A stretch of 64,000 bases of DNA from a virus. Position 1 is the first letter of the stretch. The number at the start of each line of letters is the position of its first letter. The DNA is taken from IMG/VR virus record IMGVR_UViG_3300015371_000001, positions 32,001 through 96,000 of that record. One strand, 5' to 3'. Position numbers and translations under genes: made by a program. This document shows, piece by piece, positions 10,176 through 32,179 of this stretch. Under the pieces are notes generated by a model, which made no database searches, had not been told where the DNA came from, and worked only from the letters and a program-made list of their open reading frames with translations.

Positions 10176-10374
10176 CGCGGTCTACAAGTGGGCGCGAGGT
10201 CTCCCCGAGGAGACGGTCAAGCAACTCAAGGAAGCTGGGCTGTACCGGCCCGAGGGTCCTGGCATCTCTGAGGTGGAGCCGGGAGTATGGAGTCACCCGA
10301 GATACTTCCTGAAGAAGCCGAAGGACGACGATGGCACCCATCGCGAGTCTGGCGACGACGCTCGCTCTGCTTGA
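10168..10374 (+). CDS. Small hypothetical protein (MADAVYKW...)
   Basis: ATG overlaps the end of the portal gene; phage-like codon usage. Confidence 0.6.
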   Translation: MADAVYKWARGLPEETVKQLKEAGLYRPEGPGISEVEPGVWSHPRYFLKKPKDDDGTHRESGDDARSA

Positions 10375-11326
10375 CCACAGGCGAGACGATCTCCAGGCGT
10401 ACTCAGGGCAACTGCGCTCGGACATCCGAGACGATGTGCTGGGTGCGGTCGGCGCGTACTCGGATCACATCGCGGCGATCATCCGCGCCAACCCAGACCG
10501 GGACATCAACGAGATCCTGACTCGCGCTGATCTTCAGCGCACGCTCACCACATCGATGGATGGACTGCGGAGGCAGGCCGTGGGCCGGATCAGGTCGTCA
10601 TGGTTCTACGGTTCGGACTTGGCCACCGATCATGTCAATGAGGAGATCGACCGGTTGACAGGTGGCTTTCGACTCAGGCGTAGTCGAGCCGACGACTCCT
10701 ACCTGGAGGGCTTGGTCGACGATGTCAACACCAACATCGATTCGCTCACCAACGCTCTGCTACAACGAGCCGAGCAGATCTACGAGGAGCAGGGTGGGTA
10801 CCTCCAGCACGAGTTGGAGTCCAAGAACGTCCGCAAGGCCAAGGCCAGCCGGATTGCTTCGCTCCTCAAGGACTCGCTCACGCTATCGGCGCAGCGTGCC
10901 GGTATCCGGGTGGCGTACGGATCTCAGGTAGCCGCTGCCCGAGGCTTCACCAACCAGCAGATCGCGGCGTACGCCAGGATGGCCGCTCAGGACCCCAGCA
11001 CCAGGAAGGTGTGGGTGGCCAACTTCTTGAACAACAACCCGTGCGACATGTGCTGGGCGCTCCACGGTGTATCTCTGCCTATCGGCCAGTCGTTCGATCC
11101 GTACGCCACCTTCGGTCGGCGCGTGGTTCGCACCTATCGTGACCTGATCGGTCCGCCACGGCATCCCAACTGCCAGTGTCGGTTGGTGGTGACCCGTGAG
11201 GGGATGGACTTCAGCACGGCATCGCCAGACACCATGCAACAGTTCGCTCAGGAGAAATTGAGGGACGAAATCGGCATTCACGCCGCTCGGGACGCGCTGG
11301 AGCATGTAGCGATCCTGTTCATCTGA
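10331..11326 (+). CDS. MuF-like minor head protein
   Basis: C-terminal KVW...CDMCWALHG...PPRHPNCQCRL motif; lies between portal and scaffold. Confidence 0.8.
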   Translation: MAPIASLATTLALLDHRRDDLQAYSGQLRSDIRDDVLGAVGAYSDHIAAIIRANPDRDINEILTRADLQRTLTTSMDGLRRQAVGRIRSSWFYGSDLATDHVNEEIDRLTGGFRLRRSRADDSYLEGLVDDVNTNIDSLTNALLQRAEQIYEEQGGYLQHELESKNVRKAKASRIASLLKDSLTLSAQRAGIRVAYGSQVAAARGFTNQQIAAYARMAAQDPSTRKVWVANFLNNNPCDMCWALHGVSLPIGQSFDPYATFGRRVVRTYRDLIGPPRHPNCQCRLVVTREGMDFSTASPDTMQQFAQEKLRDEIGIHAARDALEHVAILFI

Positions 11327-11327
11327 T

Positions 11328-11334
11328 CCGATAA
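11328..11334 (+). promoter_or_regulatory. Candidate late promoter -10 element CCGATAA
   Basis: 7 nt before the GTG at 11342, no SD. Confidence 0.6.
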
Positions 11335-11341
11335 GCCATAC

Positions 11342-12463
11342 GTGGCTGATGAACTTGCTGTCGTCCCTAGCGACGATGCCGATTGGGTCGAGCTAGCGCG
11401 CTCGTCGTCCGGTCGTCTGTTCAGGAAGCACATCCTGACCAAGGGCGATCTGATTCATCCCAAGACTGGATCGATCATCCCCATCGATGATCAGTACCTC
11501 GACACGATGGTGGACAACTTCGAGAAGGGTGTCTGCCCTATCGTCCAGGTCCCTCTGGCCGGACCACGCAATGAGCACACCGAGGACCCTGAGCGGAACC
11601 TTGGTGAGGTCGTCGGCCTGGAGAAGGAGGGGGACAAGTTCTTCGCCGTCATCGACGTGCGGGACTCTGACAAGGCGGACAAGGTCGGTAAGACGATCCT
11701 CGGTGCGTCGGCGATGTTCTCTCAGAACTACCTCGACACCAAGACGGGCCAGCATGTCGGTCCCACGCTCTTGCATGTCTGCGCGACCAATAGACCGTAC
11801 GTCCGTGACCTAGAGGACTACGAGGAGCTAGTCGCAGCCTCATCCGATAACAACAGCGATGTGGTCGTGCTGTCCACTGCGGAAGGAACGGACGAGATGC
11901 CGGAAATGACTCGCGACGAGATGATCGCCGCACTGCGCGACGATCATGGCATCGACGTGGTGGCAATGCACGAGGAGCTTGAAGCCTCGCGGCCAGCAGT
12001 CGCCCTCACTCAGCAGCTTGCCAACGCGCTGGTCGACGGAGACATCGTCCAGCTTTCGGCGGGCCAGGAGATGACGATTGACGACGTTCGAGGCGGCGTG
12101 CTCGCGCTCGCCGAGGAGAACAGCCGTCTTGGCCAGTCGGTGGTCAACGCCGCTGACCAGATCACCGAGTTGACCAACGAGTTGGACGAGGTCACGCAGA
12201 AGCAGGCCGACACGCTCATCGACTCGCTGATCGAGCAGGGCCGGATTGCACCTGCGAAGAAGGACGACTACCTCAAGCTGTGCATGACCGACTTCGACAT
12301 GTTCGAGGCGATGGTGCCGGACGAGCCCATCGTCAAGCTCTCCAAGGAGTCCGGCACGTCGGAGACCGACGATGTCCACGACACCAACGAGAAGGCCATC
12401 ACCAGCGAGATCGACCGCTACGTGAAGGCGGACTTCGCGAAGCCGTACGTGCGGACGCAGTAA
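11342..12463 (+). CDS. Prohead protease/scaffold (Mu gpI-like)
   Basis: NEH..., SAMFSQNY, GPTLLHVCATNRPYV protease-like N-terminus; acidic helical scaffold ending in IEQGRIAPA; synteny. Confidence 0.8.
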   Translation: MADELAVVPSDDADWVELARSSSGRLFRKHILTKGDLIHPKTGSIIPIDDQYLDTMVDNFEKGVCPIVQVPLAGPRNEHTEDPERNLGEVVGLEKEGDKFFAVIDVRDSDKADKVGKTILGASAMFSQNYLDTKTGQHVGPTLLHVCATNRPYVRDLEDYEELVAASSDNNSDVVVLSTAEGTDEMPEMTRDEMIAALRDDHGIDVVAMHEELEASRPAVALTQQLANALVDGDIVQLSAGQEMTIDDVRGGVLALAEENSRLGQSVVNAADQITELTNELDEVTQKQADTLIDSLIEQGRIAPAKKDDYLKLCMTDFDMFEAMVPDEPIVKLSKESGTSETDDVHDTNEKAITSEIDRYVKADFAKPYVRTQ

Positions 12464-12940: not shown

Positions 12941-13372
12941 ATGCAGGATTGCTCAACGGCTGGGTGTAACAACCCAGCCGTTGGTCATGGAAAGAACTGG
13001 CGTAAGTGCCGTAGCTGCTTGAACGAGTACCAGCGGAATTGGCAACGTCAGAACAAGGCGCGTCGGACCATCGTCCGGTTTAAGATCACCGAGGGCGAGT
13101 ACGTCGAACAGCTAGAGGATCAGTACGGCAGGTGTGCCAACCCATCCTGCCTCACCCACTGGCGAGACACGGCCTTCAAGCGCCTGGTGTGGGACAACGA
13201 ACGACGGAAATTGCTCTGTGTCCCCTGTAACAAAGCGCGTGGTCTCCTCCAAGATGATCCACTTCGGCTACGTGGGCTGGCCGATTACGTGGAGGGGACT
13301 CAGACTGCCAATCCGATGAGCCTAAGCAAGGTTCTCGGCGAACCGATAAGCATTGATAGACCAGCCGGTTGA
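12941..13372 (+). CDS. Endonuclease VII-like (His-Me finger) protein
   Basis: CRSC...QYGRCANPSC...LLCVPCNKARGLLQDDPLRLRGLADYV. Confidence 0.7.
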   Translation: MQDCSTAGCNNPAVGHGKNWRKCRSCLNEYQRNWQRQNKARRTIVRFKITEGEYVEQLEDQYGRCANPSCLTHWRDTAFKRLVWDNERRKLLCVPCNKARGLLQDDPLRLRGLADYVEGTQTANPMSLSKVLGEPISIDRPAG

Positions 13373-13454: not shown

Positions 13455-14462
13455 GTGCCTGAGATCAGTCTTTTGAACCCGACCGTGCTGCGGGGCGTCG
13501 TTGAGAAGTTCACGGCCCCAGAGTCGCTGGTGATGCTCAACCGCGTCGACAAGACTCCGTGGCCGTACCCGAGCGCCACTTGGGACGTGATCCGTGGTTC
13601 GCGCATGATGGCGAAGCCGAACGTCCCCAACTCCGAGGCCCACATCGTGCCTCGTCTGGGTCGGAGCCAGGAGTCGGCGAGCTTCGTCTACCTTCGTGAG
13701 AAGAAGGTGTTCGAGCCCACCACGCTCTACTGGATTCGTACGCCAGGGCAGCTTGCGGCGCGCAACGCCGAAGCTGCGGTCATGCGAGAGATCGGTGACC
13801 TCAACCAGCGCTTCGACAACTTCGCCGAGTTCTGCATCTGGCGGATGTTCACCGGCAACCTGGTGCTCGACTATCCCGACGTGCAGGCCAACGTCGACTA
13901 CAAGCTCCCGTCGAGCCACAAGCCGAACCCAGGCACCTCGTGGGCATCAGGCACCCCCGAGTCGCTGGTCGGCGACATCCGGGCTTGGAAGCGGCTCATC
14001 AGCCGTGACGGTCGTGTTCCGGCGCGTGAGGCGTACGCCACCGAAAAGACGATCTCCTACATCTTCGACGCCTACGCGGACACCGGCTCCAACGCGCCGT
14101 TCCTGCTGAGCGACCGGATGAAGGACCAGTACTACTCGACCGGCACGCTCCCCAACTTCATGGGGCTCGACTGGCATACCACCGAGCACATCTTCGAGGA
14201 CGACAGCGGCAACGAGACGCTGTTCCTGGCGGACAACGCGCTGCTGATCGGCAACTTCACCGAGAACCGTCCGTTCGAGATGTTCGTCGGCCCGACCGCT
14301 GACGACGAGGCTCCGGACTATTTCACCGGCAAGTTCTCCAAGACGTGGAAGGACAAGGACCCGTCGGCCAGGCAGTACCTCCTGGAGTGGCACTTCCTTC
14401 CGGTTATGACCCGTCCTGAGCAGTTCGTCTACGTCGCGGACGTGACCGACACCACGCCATAA
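13455..14462 (+). CDS. Major capsid protein (lambda gpE-like)
   Basis: 335 aa with strong SD (AAGGAG); follows scaffold and decoration genes; KTWKDKDPSARQYLLEWHFLPV C-terminus; strong hairpin follows. Confidence 0.85.
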   Translation: MPEISLLNPTVLRGVVEKFTAPESLVMLNRVDKTPWPYPSATWDVIRGSRMMAKPNVPNSEAHIVPRLGRSQESASFVYLREKKVFEPTTLYWIRTPGQLAARNAEAAVMREIGDLNQRFDNFAEFCIWRMFTGNLVLDYPDVQANVDYKLPSSHKPNPGTSWASGTPESLVGDIRAWKRLISRDGRVPAREAYATEKTISYIFDAYADTGSNAPFLLSDRMKDQYYSTGTLPNFMGLDWHTTEHIFEDDSGNETLFLADNALLIGNFTENRPFEMFVGPTADDEAPDYFTGKFSKTWKDKDPSARQYLLEWHFLPVMTRPEQFVYVADVTDTTP

Positions 14463-14481: not shown

Positions 14482-14520
14482 TGAGAGCGGTCCCCTTGCG
14501 CCGGGGACCGCTCTCAATTT
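14482..14520 (+). terminator. Intrinsic terminator after the major capsid gene
   Basis: 14-bp stem TGAGAGCGGTCCCC / GGGGACCGCTCTCA, 7-nt loop, followed by ATTT. Confidence 0.8.
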
Positions 14521-14653: not shown

Positions 14654-15394
14654 ATGGCTACACGCTTGAACCAACTGCTCGCTATCGACAAGACGCAGCA
14701 GGCAGAGACGAAGTCTGTGGTCACCAAGTCGCACCACGCGCTTCAGACAAGCTCCAAGACGGTGGGTATCCACCGGAGCTACCAGCCGCTCGATGAGGCG
14801 GACACCGACCGACTGCCCGATGAGGGCACGCTGGTCCAGGTCCGTGCGGGTGAGGAGATCCAGCGGGTCCGCAAGGCATGGGGCGACCTCATGGACGTGA
14901 CCGCGAAGAAGGACTGGACCAACCAGTCGGCCAACGCGGATGTTGTCCTGTCGGACGGCACGGTCCTGGTCGAGGGTGCGCCCACGACGTTCCTGCTCTG
15001 GCTGGAGAAGCGGCTGGAGGACATCTACACCTACGTGTCCAAGATCCCGGAGTTGAACCCCGGCATCGAGTGGGAGTACGACCCGAACACGGACACGTAC
15101 CGCTCGAAGCCCACCGAGACGGCGCGCAACAAGAAGGAGCCGAGGGTCGTCACCTTGGCTCCGTCGACCGACAAGCACCCGGCGCAGACCCAACTCCTCA
15201 TGGAGGACAAGCGGGTCGGCACGTTCACCACGACGCACTTCAGCGGTGGGATGCCCCGCAAGGACATTCAGGCGCTCAAGGAGCGGGTGCGCGAGGTCGC
15301 CAAGGCGTCCAAGCAGGCACGGGAGCAGGCCAACCTGGTCGATGTGGACGACATCGAGGTTGCCGACCGTGTCCTGGACTACATCTTCGGGTAG
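14654..15394 (+). CDS. Conserved hypothetical protein (MATRLNQLLAI...; from memory resembles the actinobacterial/phage DUF7873-type family)
   Basis: 246 aa, SD GGAGGCAGC; motifs KKDWTNQSANADV, FLLWLEKRL, TDKHPAQ, HFSGGMP, AREQAN. Confidence 0.8.
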   Translation: MATRLNQLLAIDKTQQAETKSVVTKSHHALQTSSKTVGIHRSYQPLDEADTDRLPDEGTLVQVRAGEEIQRVRKAWGDLMDVTAKKDWTNQSANADVVLSDGTVLVEGAPTTFLLWLEKRLEDIYTYVSKIPELNPGIEWEYDPNTDTYRSKPTETARNKKEPRVVTLAPSTDKHPAQTQLLMEDKRVGTFTTTHFSGGMPRKDIQALKERVREVAKASKQAREQANLVDVDDIEVADRVLDYIFG

Positions 15395-15397
15395 GGT

Positions 15398-15870
15398 TGA
15401 CGTAAGCCAAGTTCATCGTCATTGGTCAGTGAGGGTGCAGCCTCTTAAGCGGCCCCACTCAAGTTCATGGATAGCGGGACCCTAGTGCAGGTTCGAGCCC
15501 TGCCCCCGGTACAACGAGCCGGGGTAGCCCAATCGGTAGAGGCAGTCCCCGCCAGTCAAGCTCGGCTTACAAGTTCATAGACCGTGGGAGGCCGGATCGA
15601 TCTGGCACCGACCCACTAAAAGCAAGAGGAGCGGGTTCAATTCCCGTCCCCGGAGCAGGGTCCCCGTCCCGTGAGCAAGAACGGTGGGGGACGGTGGCTC
15701 TGCTCCGGGGTGGCTCAAGTGGCTGAGCGCTTGCTTACGTCATAGTTCTTTCGGTGCCCAACTGTGTCGGTTCTCCAGGATCGCGGATACGACTACAGAC
15801 CTGACTTTTGAATCAGACCTCTGATCGTTGGGGGTGGCCCACAAGGCAAGGTGGGTCACCCCCGCTTTTT
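15398..15870 (+). ncRNA. Structured RNA with two circularly permuted tRNA-like modules
   Basis: T-arms GCAGG-TTCGAGC-CCTGC (15487-15503) and GCGGG-TTCAATT-CCCGT (15631-15647), each followed by a closed acceptor-like stem and a D-arm-like segment; no credible ORF; ends in a terminator. Confidence 0.75.
15830..15870 (+). terminator. Intrinsic terminator
   Basis: GGGGGTGGCCCAC / GTGGGTCACCCCC stem followed by GCTTTTT. Confidence 0.85.
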
Positions 15871-15911
15871 ATGCTTTAGACTGTTGACGACCGGCAACTA
15901 GGAGGCATGGC

Positions 15912-16436
15912 ATGACCGACTTCGTGGACCTCGATGAGGTAGAACCACTTCCACCGCTCTTTCAGGAGCAGATGGAGAAGGCGGAGAATGTTCACTTCAT
16001 GCTCGCCCCGCAGAATCCCAGCGAGGCAGACCTGGAGGCGTACGCCGACGGCCTGGACGCGGCAGCGGACGTGATCGACTCCAAGGGTTGGTGCCAGAAC
16101 ACCTTCATCGGGCAGGACGGTACGGTCTGTGCCGAGCAGGCGATGTGGGTGGGCTACGGCCTGAAGGGTATGTGCGGGCAGGAAGCGAAGCCCACCGATG
16201 GCCTACCGTTGGCTCAATTCAACAAGGCGCTCGCCATGCTCGCGCTGATCGTCAAGGCGCATGGTGCTCGTACCGGTGCGTCGGTGGCTGGCTGGAACGA
16301 TGAGGACGCCACCACGAAGGAGCAGGTGGTCGACACCCTGCGCTTCGTGGCCAAGGAGTTCCGCATGGGCAAGGCGTACTTCGAAATTAATCTGCCGTGG
16401 GGGGTTGACGGTCGGCAACCAGATGCCGTAGAGTAG
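15912..16436 (+). CDS. Hypothetical protein, 'AAD-I--GWxQ...C...WND' paralog family (DUF6197-like from memory)
   Basis: AAADVIDSKGWCQ..C..GWNDEDATTKEQVVDTLR; SD AGGAGG. Confidence 0.75.
   Translation: MTDFVDLDEVEPLPPLFQEQMEKAENVHFMLAPQNPSEADLEAYADGLDAAADVIDSKGWCQNTFIGQDGTVCAEQAMWVGYGLKGMCGQEAKPTDGLPLAQFNKALAMLALIVKAHGARTGASVAGWNDEDATTKEQVVDTLRFVAKEFRMGKAYFEINLPWGVDGRQPDAVE
16404..16434 (+). promoter_or_regulatory. Housekeeping-type promoter TTGACG-N18-TAGAGT with overlapping GTTG-N8-CAAC box
   Basis: Close to the actinobacterial HrdB/SigA consensus; points into a long ORF-free structured region. Confidence 0.65.
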
Positions 16437-16440
16437 TAGT

Positions 16441-16980
16441 CAAGTGAAGGGGCTCCGAAACCGGTATGCCGGGGGAGTCAAGCCACACCTCGCGGGAGCT
16501 ACGGTGTAACGCGAGGCGAGGACTGCGGCGATAATCCGCGCTCGTGACGGATGGCGGTCAGGTCCCTACGGGGACTGCTCCAACTGGAGACCCCTTCGCG
16601 AACACCCCCTGTGGGCGACTGTTGACCGATGCCTAAGGGCGATCCGGCAGTTCACCGGAAACGCCACGAGTACGGCTGATGAACACGGCGGCTACGCGGC
16701 AGGGGGAGCCAGGGAATCTCGTGAACGGGTAGAGCCGCCGAGTAGGGTTCGAGTCCCGTCCCCAGCGTGTCAGGCGCTCGTCAGAACGGCGGTGAAACCC
16801 CGTGCGGAACACGGAGCGCTGTGGAACCGGGAGACCTCGTCAAGATTGCGATGGCGACGAGACAGCCCGAGGTGGGCCTGATCAGCCGCCCTGGTTCCGG
16901 GCACCGGCAACCATCTCCTTTCGGGCAGAACCCCGAGGTGAGTAGGGAGTAGCTACCCGAAAGCCTCGGGGTTCTTGCTG
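16441..16980 (+). ncRNA. Candidate large structured ncRNA (~540 nt)
   Basis: Domain-closing helices 16444-16452/16591-16599, 16605-16611/16700-16706 and 16707-16714/16889-16896; UACG tetraloop hairpin; T-loop GGGTTCGAGTCCC; 12-bp terminal hairpin. Confidence 0.6.
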
Positions 16981-17012
16981 TACGGAACTGCTAGAACTGA
17001 GTAGAAGGCAGC

Positions 17013-26919: not shown

Positions 26920-27354
26920 ATGAGCAAGGGCGCGCACAAGCTGGGCAAGGGAGAGGTCGTGGAGAACGGTTCGTGGGGCTCTGGCAGACCTGAGATCCGG
27001 GCGTTGCAGGACCAGGTGGCCGGATGGGCGGCGGACAAGCCGTTCAAGCAGAAGGGGAATCCGGCGATGGCGGGGTGCAAGCTGGCCGAGGAGGTCGGGG
27101 AAGCGCTCGGGTGCCTGGTTCGGATGGAGCAGGGGGTTCAGGCTCCGCCCGACTACTGGCTGGGGCGGCTGGCGCAGGAGCTAGGCGATGTCCAGATCAT
27201 CCTGAGCCGACTGGCTGACGTGGTGGGGCTGGATCTGAGCGTGTGCGCCTGGAATCGGTGGTCCGAGGTCTCACAGCGCGACGTGATGGCTCCGCGTACG
27301 CCGGAGGAGCGGCAGGCGGCGGCGCTGGCCGGGTGGACGGTGGCGGATGAGTGA
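26920..27354 (+). CDS. MazG-like nucleotide pyrophosphohydrolase
   Basis: KLAEEVGE...QELGDV motif; GGAGG SD. Confidence 0.85.
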   Translation: MSKGAHKLGKGEVVENGSWGSGRPEIRALQDQVAGWAADKPFKQKGNPAMAGCKLAEEVGEALGCLVRMEQGVQAPPDYWLGRLAQELGDVQIILSRLADVVGLDLSVCAWNRWSEVSQRDVMAPRTPEERQAAALAGWTVADE

Positions 27355-31895: not shown

Positions 31896-32179
31896 TGGAT
31901 CGTCAAGAGTGCGGTCCTTGGTGTCCGGTCTGCCACATTCTTCGGCCTGCTGATGGGATCGCCCGTTCGGAGTACTGGATCTCGCTGACCAGTCGGCTCA
32001 ATGAGTCGGCGATGTGCTGCCACACCATCTGTCGGTACTGCGTGGCGAAGGTCCGGAAGGACGGCGGCTATAAGCACTGGAAGATCGCATCGGTCAGTGA
32101 TCTCAAGTGGCCGATGGTTGCGGAGGCCGACGGCAAGAAGTTTGAGTACCAGGCGATAGCGATTGAGCCGGTGTCATGA
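31895..32179 (+). CDS. Cys-rich hypothetical protein
   Basis: TGATG coupling; CPVC, CRYC. Confidence 0.55.
   Translation: MDRQECGPWCPVCHILRPADGIARSEYWISLTSRLNESAMCCHTICRYCVAKVRKDGGYKHWKIASVSDLKWPMVAEADGKKFEYQAIAIEPVS

Follow-up and report, generated by a model that had tools for sequence, protein, structure and literature searches.

A two-headed tRNA-like RNA encoded beside DUF7873 genes of large phages and bacteria

Main finding

Directly behind a gene for a 246-residue protein of the DUF7873 family, the window (the whole stretch of 64,000 nt analysed here, positions 32,001 to 96,000 of the IMG/VR virus record IMGVR_UViG_3300015371_000001, which measures 141,276 bp, is estimated to be 96% complete and has 61% G+C) contains the gene for one structured non-coding RNA of ~475 nt, in which two tRNA-shaped heads are carried by a non-tRNA core. 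Each head consists of an elbow of T and D arms and a 12-bp stack of acceptor and T stem, and in the core long closing helices are combined with a hairpin of the linker and with copies of the CAAGYTCA motif. The order within a head, with the T arm first, then an acceptor stem closed by a loop and then the D arm, is the topology of the YrlA-type Y RNAs, as the initial annotation of this DNA had pointed out. No bacterial non-coding RNA other than the Y RNAs, which are defined by having Ro60 as partner, is so far known to be built on such an inside-out tRNA. The RNA described here applies the principle two times within a single molecule and is accompanied by another, highly conserved protein, and the pair of DUF7873 and RNA is spread over several bacterial phyla and many large phages. 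We regard the RNA as a two-headed tRNA mimic of the Y-RNA type that has a new partner. DUF7873 and the RNA probably make up an undescribed RNA-protein system, as had been proposed. The RNA is absent from Rfam 15, and the searchable literature yielded no match for DUF7873 and no permuted tRNA-like RNAs in phages outside Ro60 systems.

Architecture of the RNA

The region from the DUF7873 stop codon to the end of the terminator (15395-15870, Table 1) folds with a minimum free energy (MFE) of -207.6 kcal/mol (z = -2.95). The initial annotation had described two permuted cloverleaf modules between the 246-aa gene and a strong terminator, and every helix was found again at its position. Two cloverleaves are, however, not a full description, as the modules are parts of one ~475-nt RNA with a conserved non-tRNA core and repeats. 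An anticodon loop is missing from both modules, as had been noted before, and so is an encoded CCA end; the acceptor loops start with ACAA and GCAG, respectively. The T arms begin 92 and 236 nt after the stop codon, 144 nt apart, module 1 is flanked by the repeats (three copies of CAAGTTCAT and one of CAAGCTC), and the terminator stem is followed by the T run CTTTTTAT.

Table 1. Positions of the RNA elements and of neighbouring genes in the window.
Feature	Position	Strand	Remarks
Whole non-coding RNA region, stop codon to terminator	15395..15870	+	~475 nt
CAAGTTCAT repeat, copy 1	15408..15416	+	
CAAGTTCAT repeat, copy 2	15460..15468	+	5 nt before module 1 closing stem
Module 1	15474..15552	+	permuted tRNA-like domain, tRNA-Leu-like type
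Module 1 closing stem	15474-80 with 15545-52		GCGGGAC with GTCCCCGC, one bulged C
Module 1 T arm	15487-15503		GCAGG-TTCGAGC-CCTGC
Module 1 acceptor	15504-10 with 15518-24		CCCCGGT with GCCGGGG, loop ACAACGA
Module 1 discriminator	15511		A
Module 1 D arm	15527-43		GCCC-AATCGGTAG-AGGC, preceded by TA
CAAGCTC	15557..15563	+	variant repeat copy, identical to bacterial form
CAAGTTCAT repeat, copy 3	15570..15578	+	in linker
Linker hairpin	15584..15616	+	GTGGG...CCCAC, predicted in MFE fold
ATCGA motif	15596-15600		within linker hairpin, ~35 nt before module 2 T arm
Module 2	15620..15736	+	permuted class-I-like tRNA domain
Module 2 closing stem	15620-26 with 15730-36		AAGCAAG with CTTGCTT
Module 2 T arm	15631-47		
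Module 2 acceptor	15648-54 with 15704-10		CCCCGGA with TCCGGGG
Hairpin inserted in module 2 acceptor loop	15655-15703		49 nt
Module 2 D arm	15713-28		GCTC-AAGTGGCT-GAGC, preceded by TG
Intrinsic terminator	15829..15870	+	14-bp stem 15829-15864, 10 G-C pairs, 8-nt loop
Large portal-fusion open reading frame	4212-10175		1987 aa
Portal / Mu F-like gene	10331-11326		
Head-maturation protease	11342-12463		
Endonuclease VII	12941-13372		
Major capsid protein	13455-14462		
DUF7873 gene	14654..15394	+	246 aa
DUF6197 gene	starts 15912		

Association of the RNA with DUF7873

The 246-aa product matched DUF7873 (PF25283) with 262.7 bits (E 4.8e-78, residues 3-245 of 246; cut-off 27 bits), and relatives of it occur in 75 GenBank phage records. 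In a nucleotide search, module 1 was 82.5% identical over 61 nt to unannotated DNA of the Arthrobacter phages Racecar, Mimi and Talia1610. The match in Racecar lies 86 nt after a gene of which the product is 41% identical to the window protein, and the sequence downstream contains the same two modules with different stem sequences. Our phage sample consisted of 11 GenBank loci (that of Racecar and those of phages of Gordonia, Rhodococcus, Microcoleus, Pseudanabaena, Vibrio, Rhizobium, Klebsiella and Ralstonia) and 20 IMG/VR contigs. In all 11 GenBank loci the DUF7873 gene was followed by 350-1160 nt with no or dubious annotation, in which a parser recognised one or two modules in ten cases and a T arm only in the Microcoleus phage locus; modules likewise followed DUF7873 in all 20 IMG/VR loci. 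Each parsed module started with one closing strand and a variable region, followed by a T stem of 5 bp with its TTCRANY loop; then came the acceptor, its 3' strand (7 nt) ahead of a loop and its 5' strand (7 nt), and after two further nucleotides the D arm and the other closing strand.

A covariance model of the module (R1) was built from phage and IMG/VR sequences only. It scored 54.2 bits on module 1 of the window (E 2.7e-12, the top match genome-wide) and 34.3 bits on module 2 (E 5.7e-7), the latter score being depressed by the 49 nt inserted into its acceptor loop. The scan for bacterial DUF7873 relatives covered one genome of each prokaryote species, and the best 80 of 130 were used. Bacterial relatives were found in the Myxococcota (Kofleriaceae, Haliangiales, Polyangia), Planctomycetota, Abditibacteriota, Acidobacteriota and others, and every listed Nannocystis species has the DUF7873-RNA pair. 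R1 matched in 79 of the 80 loci, twice in 66 of them; the 80th locus ends 100 nt after the gene. The modules lie within ~0.9 kb downstream of DUF7873, and in two-module loci the first T arm is found 42-536 nt past the stop codon, with T arms 144-218 nt (mostly 150-165 nt) apart. With enough flank, the RNA follows DUF7873 in 30 of 30 phage loci and in 79 of 79 usable bacterial loci, in support of the adjacent gene as its conserved partner, with which the initial annotation had linked it.

Since the RNA lies directly 3' of the stop codon, with no terminator in between, it could be a cis-acting 3' element of the DUF7873 mRNA that stabilises the message or serves RNase P as punctuation; 3' exonucleases are stopped by folds of the tRNA type. 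We consider this very unlikely. The modules of three bacterial loci (L089, L094 and L097) are located on the strand opposite to DUF7873, with no tRNA genes there, indicating that the RNA has its own transcription unit. Moreover, a length of 350-475 nt, two differentiated modules and conserved repeats exceed the needs of a stabiliser.

The genes around the bacterial pairs gave no common neighbour in Pfam tallies of flanking open reading frames (ORFs) from 71 and 77 bacterial loci, made with crude longest-ORF calling. One of the loci, which is not a prophage, is situated among rhodopsin, carotenoid, TldD/PmbA and leucine-biosynthesis genes, and in one locus a Pnkp-type RNA ligase is encoded upstream of DUF7873. 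The initial annotation had placed the system in a phage and anti-defence context, a framing that is weakened by the occurrence of the pair among housekeeping genes on bacterial chromosomes and in Nannocystis species. As the initial annotation had suggested, the RNA could be a decoy or sponge that shields phage and host tRNAs from tRNA-targeting defence nucleases or acceptor-end toxins, which would agree with its presence in phages with large tRNA sets, with the exposure of two tRNA elbows and acceptor stems and with transcription together with or after a late, probably highly expressed gene. To this role we give little credence. The modules have no anticodon loop, the usual nuclease target, so that a decoy for anticodon nucleases in particular is unlikely, no PADLOC family (nor any PHROG or NCBIfam family) was matched by the DUF7873 protein, and the pair is chromosomal and apparently vertically kept among housekeeping genes of free-living bacteria.

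A few bacterial loci had tRNA genes close to the modules. On the GCA_028284415.1 chromosome, an ordinary tRNA (L043:9133-9204, 64 bits, anticodon loop CTTAGAA) is located between the double-module RNA and the terminator, and in L118 and L110 a tRNA gene lies beside or between the modules. L110 (JBDRIM010000036.1) is a 4-kb contig with the DUF7873-RNA pair that was binned as Candidatus Micrarchaeota archaeon; the binning may be wrong and the contig bacterial or from a phage.

Covariation and conservation of the modules

Homologs had been expected to carry permuted modules with covarying helices, and this was indeed observed. When 22 modules from 18 loci were aligned with MAFFT without guidance, pairing reached 99% in the T stem and 100% in the acceptor stem. 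Both-side changes were present at all 12 T and acceptor pairs, the observed values were reached by none of 500 shuffles, and pairing fell to 54-58% when the partner was slid by one column. The D stem scored poorly in this alignment, for the sole reason that D loops of 7 to 10 nt shift the register. Outside the R1 training set, the 146 R1 matches in the 79 bacterial loci (145 modules and one tRNA-tRNA junction, in L113) were 98.3% paired in an alignment fitted to the model, again with compensatory changes at 12 of 12 pairs. Every module has an acceptor stem of 7 bp. A closing stem with 5 or more contiguous pairs was present at the tRNA-canonical position in 64% of the 42 phage-locus modules versus 6.6% with shuffled flanks, and the exceptions were mostly modules with long class II-type variable regions.

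The closest relative (L125, a contig that ends inside the module 2 closing stem) encodes a protein 68% identical to that of the window, and the first 346 nt of the RNA align at 82% identity. The 49-nt acceptor-loop hairpin is common to the two copies, and the module 1 closing stem has changed from GGGAC/GTCCC to CGGCG/CGCCG, which is compensatory. All three repeats were altered together, from AAGTTCA to AAnCTGA, a pattern that would be expected if one co-evolving partner reads the repeats.

The G-U pairs are specific to the + strand and this, together with the compensatory changes, points to RNA rather than DNA, so that a DNA-level element such as attP was rejected. A recent origin of the modules by duplication of tRNAs of this phage was likewise rejected, the best local alignment scores being only about half the length. 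The same data bear on whether the modules could be an artefact, i.e. decayed tRNA genes or a tRNA-tRNA junction. R1 does match tRNA-tRNA junctions in whole phage genomes, with 15-42 bits, but the top matches there are those adjacent to DUF7873 (50-73 bits), and scores at DUF7873 loci exceed those of junctions. No tRNA was called at this site, nor is there a close likeness to the phage's 37 tRNAs, and the acceptor strands are complementary in 100% of the modules. Because these strands covary, we regard the artefact as refuted, with a probability close to nil.

Comparison with YrlA

YrlA carries the same permuted domain (T arm, loop-closed acceptor and D arm) on a stem made by its flanks, YrlA and YrlB are tandem RNAs where we found tandem modules, and YrlA is encoded beside its protein partner Ro60, as the RNA described here is beside DUF7873. 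With an identical topology, the RNA could be an ordinary YrlA-type Y RNA for the Ro60/Rsr of the host (and for PNPase), DUF7873 being a mere neighbour. The Rfam YrlA model (RF02553) indeed aligned end to end, over 15460-15572, which bears out the likeness that the initial annotation had proposed to check against Rfam; the score of 22.9 bits is, however, far below the gathering threshold of 69, as are those of the relatives (32-38 bits). The tRNA model (RF00005) likewise remained below its cut-off, with 22.9 versus 29 bits, and its match bridges the D arm of module 1 and the T arm of module 2. Such a cross-module tRNA with an 82-nt insert (15518-15655) was rejected, as its two acceptor strands fail to pair in relatives, L021 and L026 among them. 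At gathering thresholds, Rfam 15 gave nothing in the whole window and ordinary tRNAs only in 16 bacterial loci, and a permissive scan of the window returned sub-threshold YrlA, tRNA and miRNA-type chance matches.

The gene content differs as well. Known YrlA RNAs are encoded at most 4 kb from Ro60 and contain a conserved GNCGAAN0-1G motif, according to Chen et al. 2014 (PMC4201824). A regular-expression (regex) search for this Ro60-site motif over the 480 nt downstream of DUF7873 found none in the window and none in 25 of the 30 loci. As had been noted for the window, no TROVE/Ro60 gene is present there, nor is there one in the whole 141,276-bp record, and TROVE is absent from 10 of the 11 DUF7873 phage genomes, including that of this phage. 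The sole phage with a TROVE/Ro60-like protein is Rhizobium phage RHph_TM3_3_6 (MN988524.1, 139764-140507), where a 529-aa frame lies ~6 kb downstream of DUF7873. Among five large DUF7873-bearing bacterial genomes, four encode a TROVE-like protein, at a distance of hundreds of kb to Mb from the pair, and no TROVE gene was found in Candidatus Uabimicrobium.

These TROVE proteins, in RHph_TM3_3_6 and in four large bacterial genomes, speak in favour of a Y RNA for the host Ro60. Another point in its favour is that PNPase, the nuclease tethered to Ro60 by Y RNA, is encoded directly upstream of DUF7873 and on the same strand in five of 77 loci (L048, L053, L055, L070 and L084). All five are metagenome-assembled genomes of Kofleriaceae/Haliangiales, with the PNPase gene at positions ~320-2450, and since the synteny is limited to this one clade it may be a coincidence. 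The RNA tracks DUF7873 and not Ro60, in 109 of 109 loci, and despite its YrlA-like shape it fails the defining YrlA tests, i.e. score, linked Ro60 and Ro60-site motif; we consider an ordinary YrlA unlikely. Further differences are that the neighbour of YrlA is a TROVE ring and here DUF7873, that both heads are contained in one ~475-nt RNA with repeated CAAGYTCA motifs, and that the heads are differentiated, one of a Leu-like class II type and one of class I with an encoded CCA.

Differentiation of the modules and processing signals

Judged from their sequences, the two modules are differentiated, module 1 being tRNA-Leu-like and module 2 class-I-like. The bacterial copies of module 1 have discriminator A in 60 of 62 cases and a D arm of the form GCGR-AAnnGGTAG-ACGC, often with a long variable region, and they seldom encode CCA (3/65). 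Module 1 of the window shares the discriminator A and the D arm ending in GGTAGA-NGC; its nucleotides 8-9 are TA, as in actinophage relatives, versus TG (U8-G9) in 60/62 bacterial copies. In bacterial copies of module 2, N-CCA directly follows the acceptor 3' strand (41/65) and U(-1) precedes the acceptor 5' strand (42/65). Over both bacterial modules taken together, the median length of the acceptor loop is 11 nt. Among the 42 phage-locus modules, 28 have N-CCA directly after the acceptor 3' strand, where less than one would be expected by chance. Module 2 of the window has C(-1) in place of U(-1) and lacks the N-CCA, so that this copy, with its ACAA and GCAG loops and its 49-nt hairpin, is an atypical member of the family.

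The core has conserved elements of its own. The CAAGYTCA motif, a candidate binding site by its conservation, precedes module 1 in 44 of 65 bacterial RNAs and recurs in the linker, which has a median length of 96 nt in bacteria, in 28 of 65, both counts being for CAAGCT. ATCRA occupies the same relative position in most phage relatives and in 42% of the bacterial linkers, and a TTAAAYG motif follows ~25-30 nt after module 2 in a subset of loci.

A 7-bp acceptor stem in a stack with a T stem of 5 bp, a 3' RCCA and U(-1) together characterise the substrates of bacterial RNase P, and module 2 usually has such features. The YrlA of Mycobacterium smegmatis, the acceptor stem of which also measures 7 bp, undergoes RNase P cleavage there and acquires CCA in vivo (PMC4201824). 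By analogy, and given the substrate features, module 2 would be opened by RNase P in many species.

These signals would also suit true permuted or split tRNA genes, the transcripts of which are cut and rejoined, or act as two pieces, and can be charged. Soma et al. reportedly described circularly permuted tRNA genes in Cyanidioschyzon merolae in 2007, and such genes are said to occur in other algae too. The C. merolae genes have the 3' half ahead of the 5' half within one transcript, the same order as here, and CCA is encoded in relatives of our RNA. Most relatives furthermore combine N-CCA with a short spacer and U(-1), module 1 of the bacterial copies has the A73, the U8-G9 and the D arm of a tRNA-Leu (and LeuRS does not read the anticodon), and the locus is often found inside tRNA arrays. 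Unlike the C. merolae genes, however, the RNA has no anticodon loop and no bulge-helix-bulge junction, and its termini do not rejoin into a 7-nt anticodon loop: the closing helices run on for 5-8 bp and open into flanks of tens of nt. To our knowledge, the splicing endonuclease for bulge-helix-bulge junctions does not occur in bacteria. Neither an RtcB ligase nor a CCA-adding enzyme is encoded by the phage, and ARAGORN called no tRNA or tmRNA, standard or permuted, at the window RNA. Finally, the discriminator of module 2 varies (U, G, A or C), so that no single amino-acid identity is kept. All in all, chargeable permuted or split tRNAs are quite improbable.

Two-piece transfer-messenger RNA (tmRNA) has the same gene order of T arm, acceptor 3' strand, CCA, spacer and acceptor 5' strand, and there as well as here a small protein is the partner, SmpB replacing the missing anticodon arm. 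Relatives of the RNA scored ~25 bits with beta_tmRNA (RF01850, cut-off 84), over the T arm, acceptor and CCA part only. In contrast to two-piece tmRNA, the RNA has full D arms and two heads, and no tag reading frame, pseudoknots or G3-U70; acceptor position 3:70 is C-G in both window modules. An Rfam tmRNA (89 bits, cut-off 47; L003:575-1103) was seen in an unannotated gap of the tRNA array of Gordonia phage Phendrix (MN096369.1).

DUF7873 and the proposed particle

The AlphaFold2 model of DUF7873, made with a 32-sequence alignment (predicted local distance difference test, pLDDT, 92.6; predicted template modelling score, pTM, 0.68), combines a long hairpin of helices with a beta-sheet, itself formed by long hairpins, and with additional helices. 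Several residues are invariant and polar, e.g. within KDWTN, RTKK, HPAQTQ, SGA and AREQAN, and they would suit a binding surface or an active site alike. A profile search of the PDB with DUF7873 was empty, Foldseek of the model against PDB and BFVD gave nothing at E <= 0.001, and the ESM Atlas returned DUF7873 clusters and unnamed viral clusters only. The best structure in VIA-align wide was 3kdq_A, an uncharacterised Corynebacterium protein (Z 9.8, root mean square deviation 5.9 Å), and the rest were generic helical proteins.

Our preferred reading, held tentatively and at somewhat less than even chances, is that DUF7873 and the RNA form a Ro60-independent particle, a counterpart of Ro60-YrlA, the heads of which engage enzymes that recognise the tRNA shape. 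DUF7873 would bind the conserved non-tRNA core, analogous to the Ro60-YrlA particle, and the heads would be offered to enzymes that read the shape of tRNA and not the anticodon, among them RNase P, the enzymes that trim 3' ends or add CCA, TruB and Dus, with LeuRS or PNPase as further possible partners. In most family members RNase P would cut the acceptor loop of module 2 and leave a CCA 3' end, as in the YrlA of M. smegmatis; the window copy, without CCA and with a 49-nt hairpin in the loop, may stay uncut. For tRNA-rich phages, the particle could be part of the equipment for handling tRNAs. Plant RNA viruses likewise have tRNA-like structures, and these and other mimics of tRNA engage host tRNA enzymes through the shape of elbow and acceptor, which is what we propose here. 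The plant viral structures are single and chargeable 3' termini of genomic RNAs, whereas the DUF7873 RNA is internal, closed and double, and occurs in DNA phages and bacteria.

Several observations weigh against such a particle. No RNA-binding or catalytic fold was recognisable in the DUF7873 model in PDB, BFVD or VIA-align, and RNAalifold gave no consensus structure for 11 linkers, the linker motifs having been identified by eye and by regex. The lack of CCA in the window modules may make the processing step questionable for this copy. Many host bacteria have an unlinked TROVE gene, so that Ro60 could act in trans there. Gene adjacency can equally mean an enzyme-substrate or a regulatory relation instead of a stable particle, and the sample of DUF7873 relatives leans to near relatives.

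A more far-reaching version, in which the pair represents a new Ro60-independent class of ribonucleoproteins with anticodon-less heads that are opened by RNase P and end in CCA, acting as a two-headed tRNA surrogate on the machinery of translation and tRNA quality control, appears doubtful to us and has a low probability. In that case the Leu-like head (A73, LeuRS-type D arm) might even be aminoacylated, and the surrogate would be a third solution beside tmRNA-SmpB and Ro60-Y RNA that tRNA-rich phages have borrowed. If DUF7873 and the RNA do form a particle, it would be a new and widespread tRNA-mimic machine that provides DUF7873 with a function, and it might explain part of the management of tRNA metabolism in tRNA-rich phages. 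Cultured systems for testing are the Gordonia phage Phendrix, the Arthrobacter phage Racecar, the Rhodococcus phage NiceHouse and Nannocystis species.

Genomic setting in the phage

The DUF7873-RNA locus forms the end of the block of head genes, after the capsid gene. This head module opens with the large ORF at 4212-10175, which the initial annotation had described as a portal fused to toxin-like domains. Behind the capsid gene, a hairpin rich in G+C (GAGCGGTCCCC...GGGGACCGCTC, 14482-14516), the T tail of which is weak, may partly separate the transcription of the capsid gene from that of DUF7873. After the DUF7873 gene there are 517 nt without a credible ORF (15395-15911), up to the DUF6197 gene.

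Another stretch without a credible ORF, of ~575 nt (16437-17012), follows the DUF6197 gene and had been annotated as another structured RNA. It is accompanied by a promoter-like site at 16405-16434 (TTGACG-18-TAGAGT) and, at 16956-16970, by a weak hairpin that resembles a terminator; R1 found no permuted module in it.

The phage encodes an array of 36 tRNAs that covers most amino acids, at 5722-11593 of the record, and the DUF7873-RNA pair is located at 46.6-47.9 kb. The pair is thus 35 kb away from the array and has stayed together despite its separation from the tRNAs. Far from the main array, ARAGORN also predicted a 96-nt tRNA-Ser with the unusual anticodon ACT (27116-27211).

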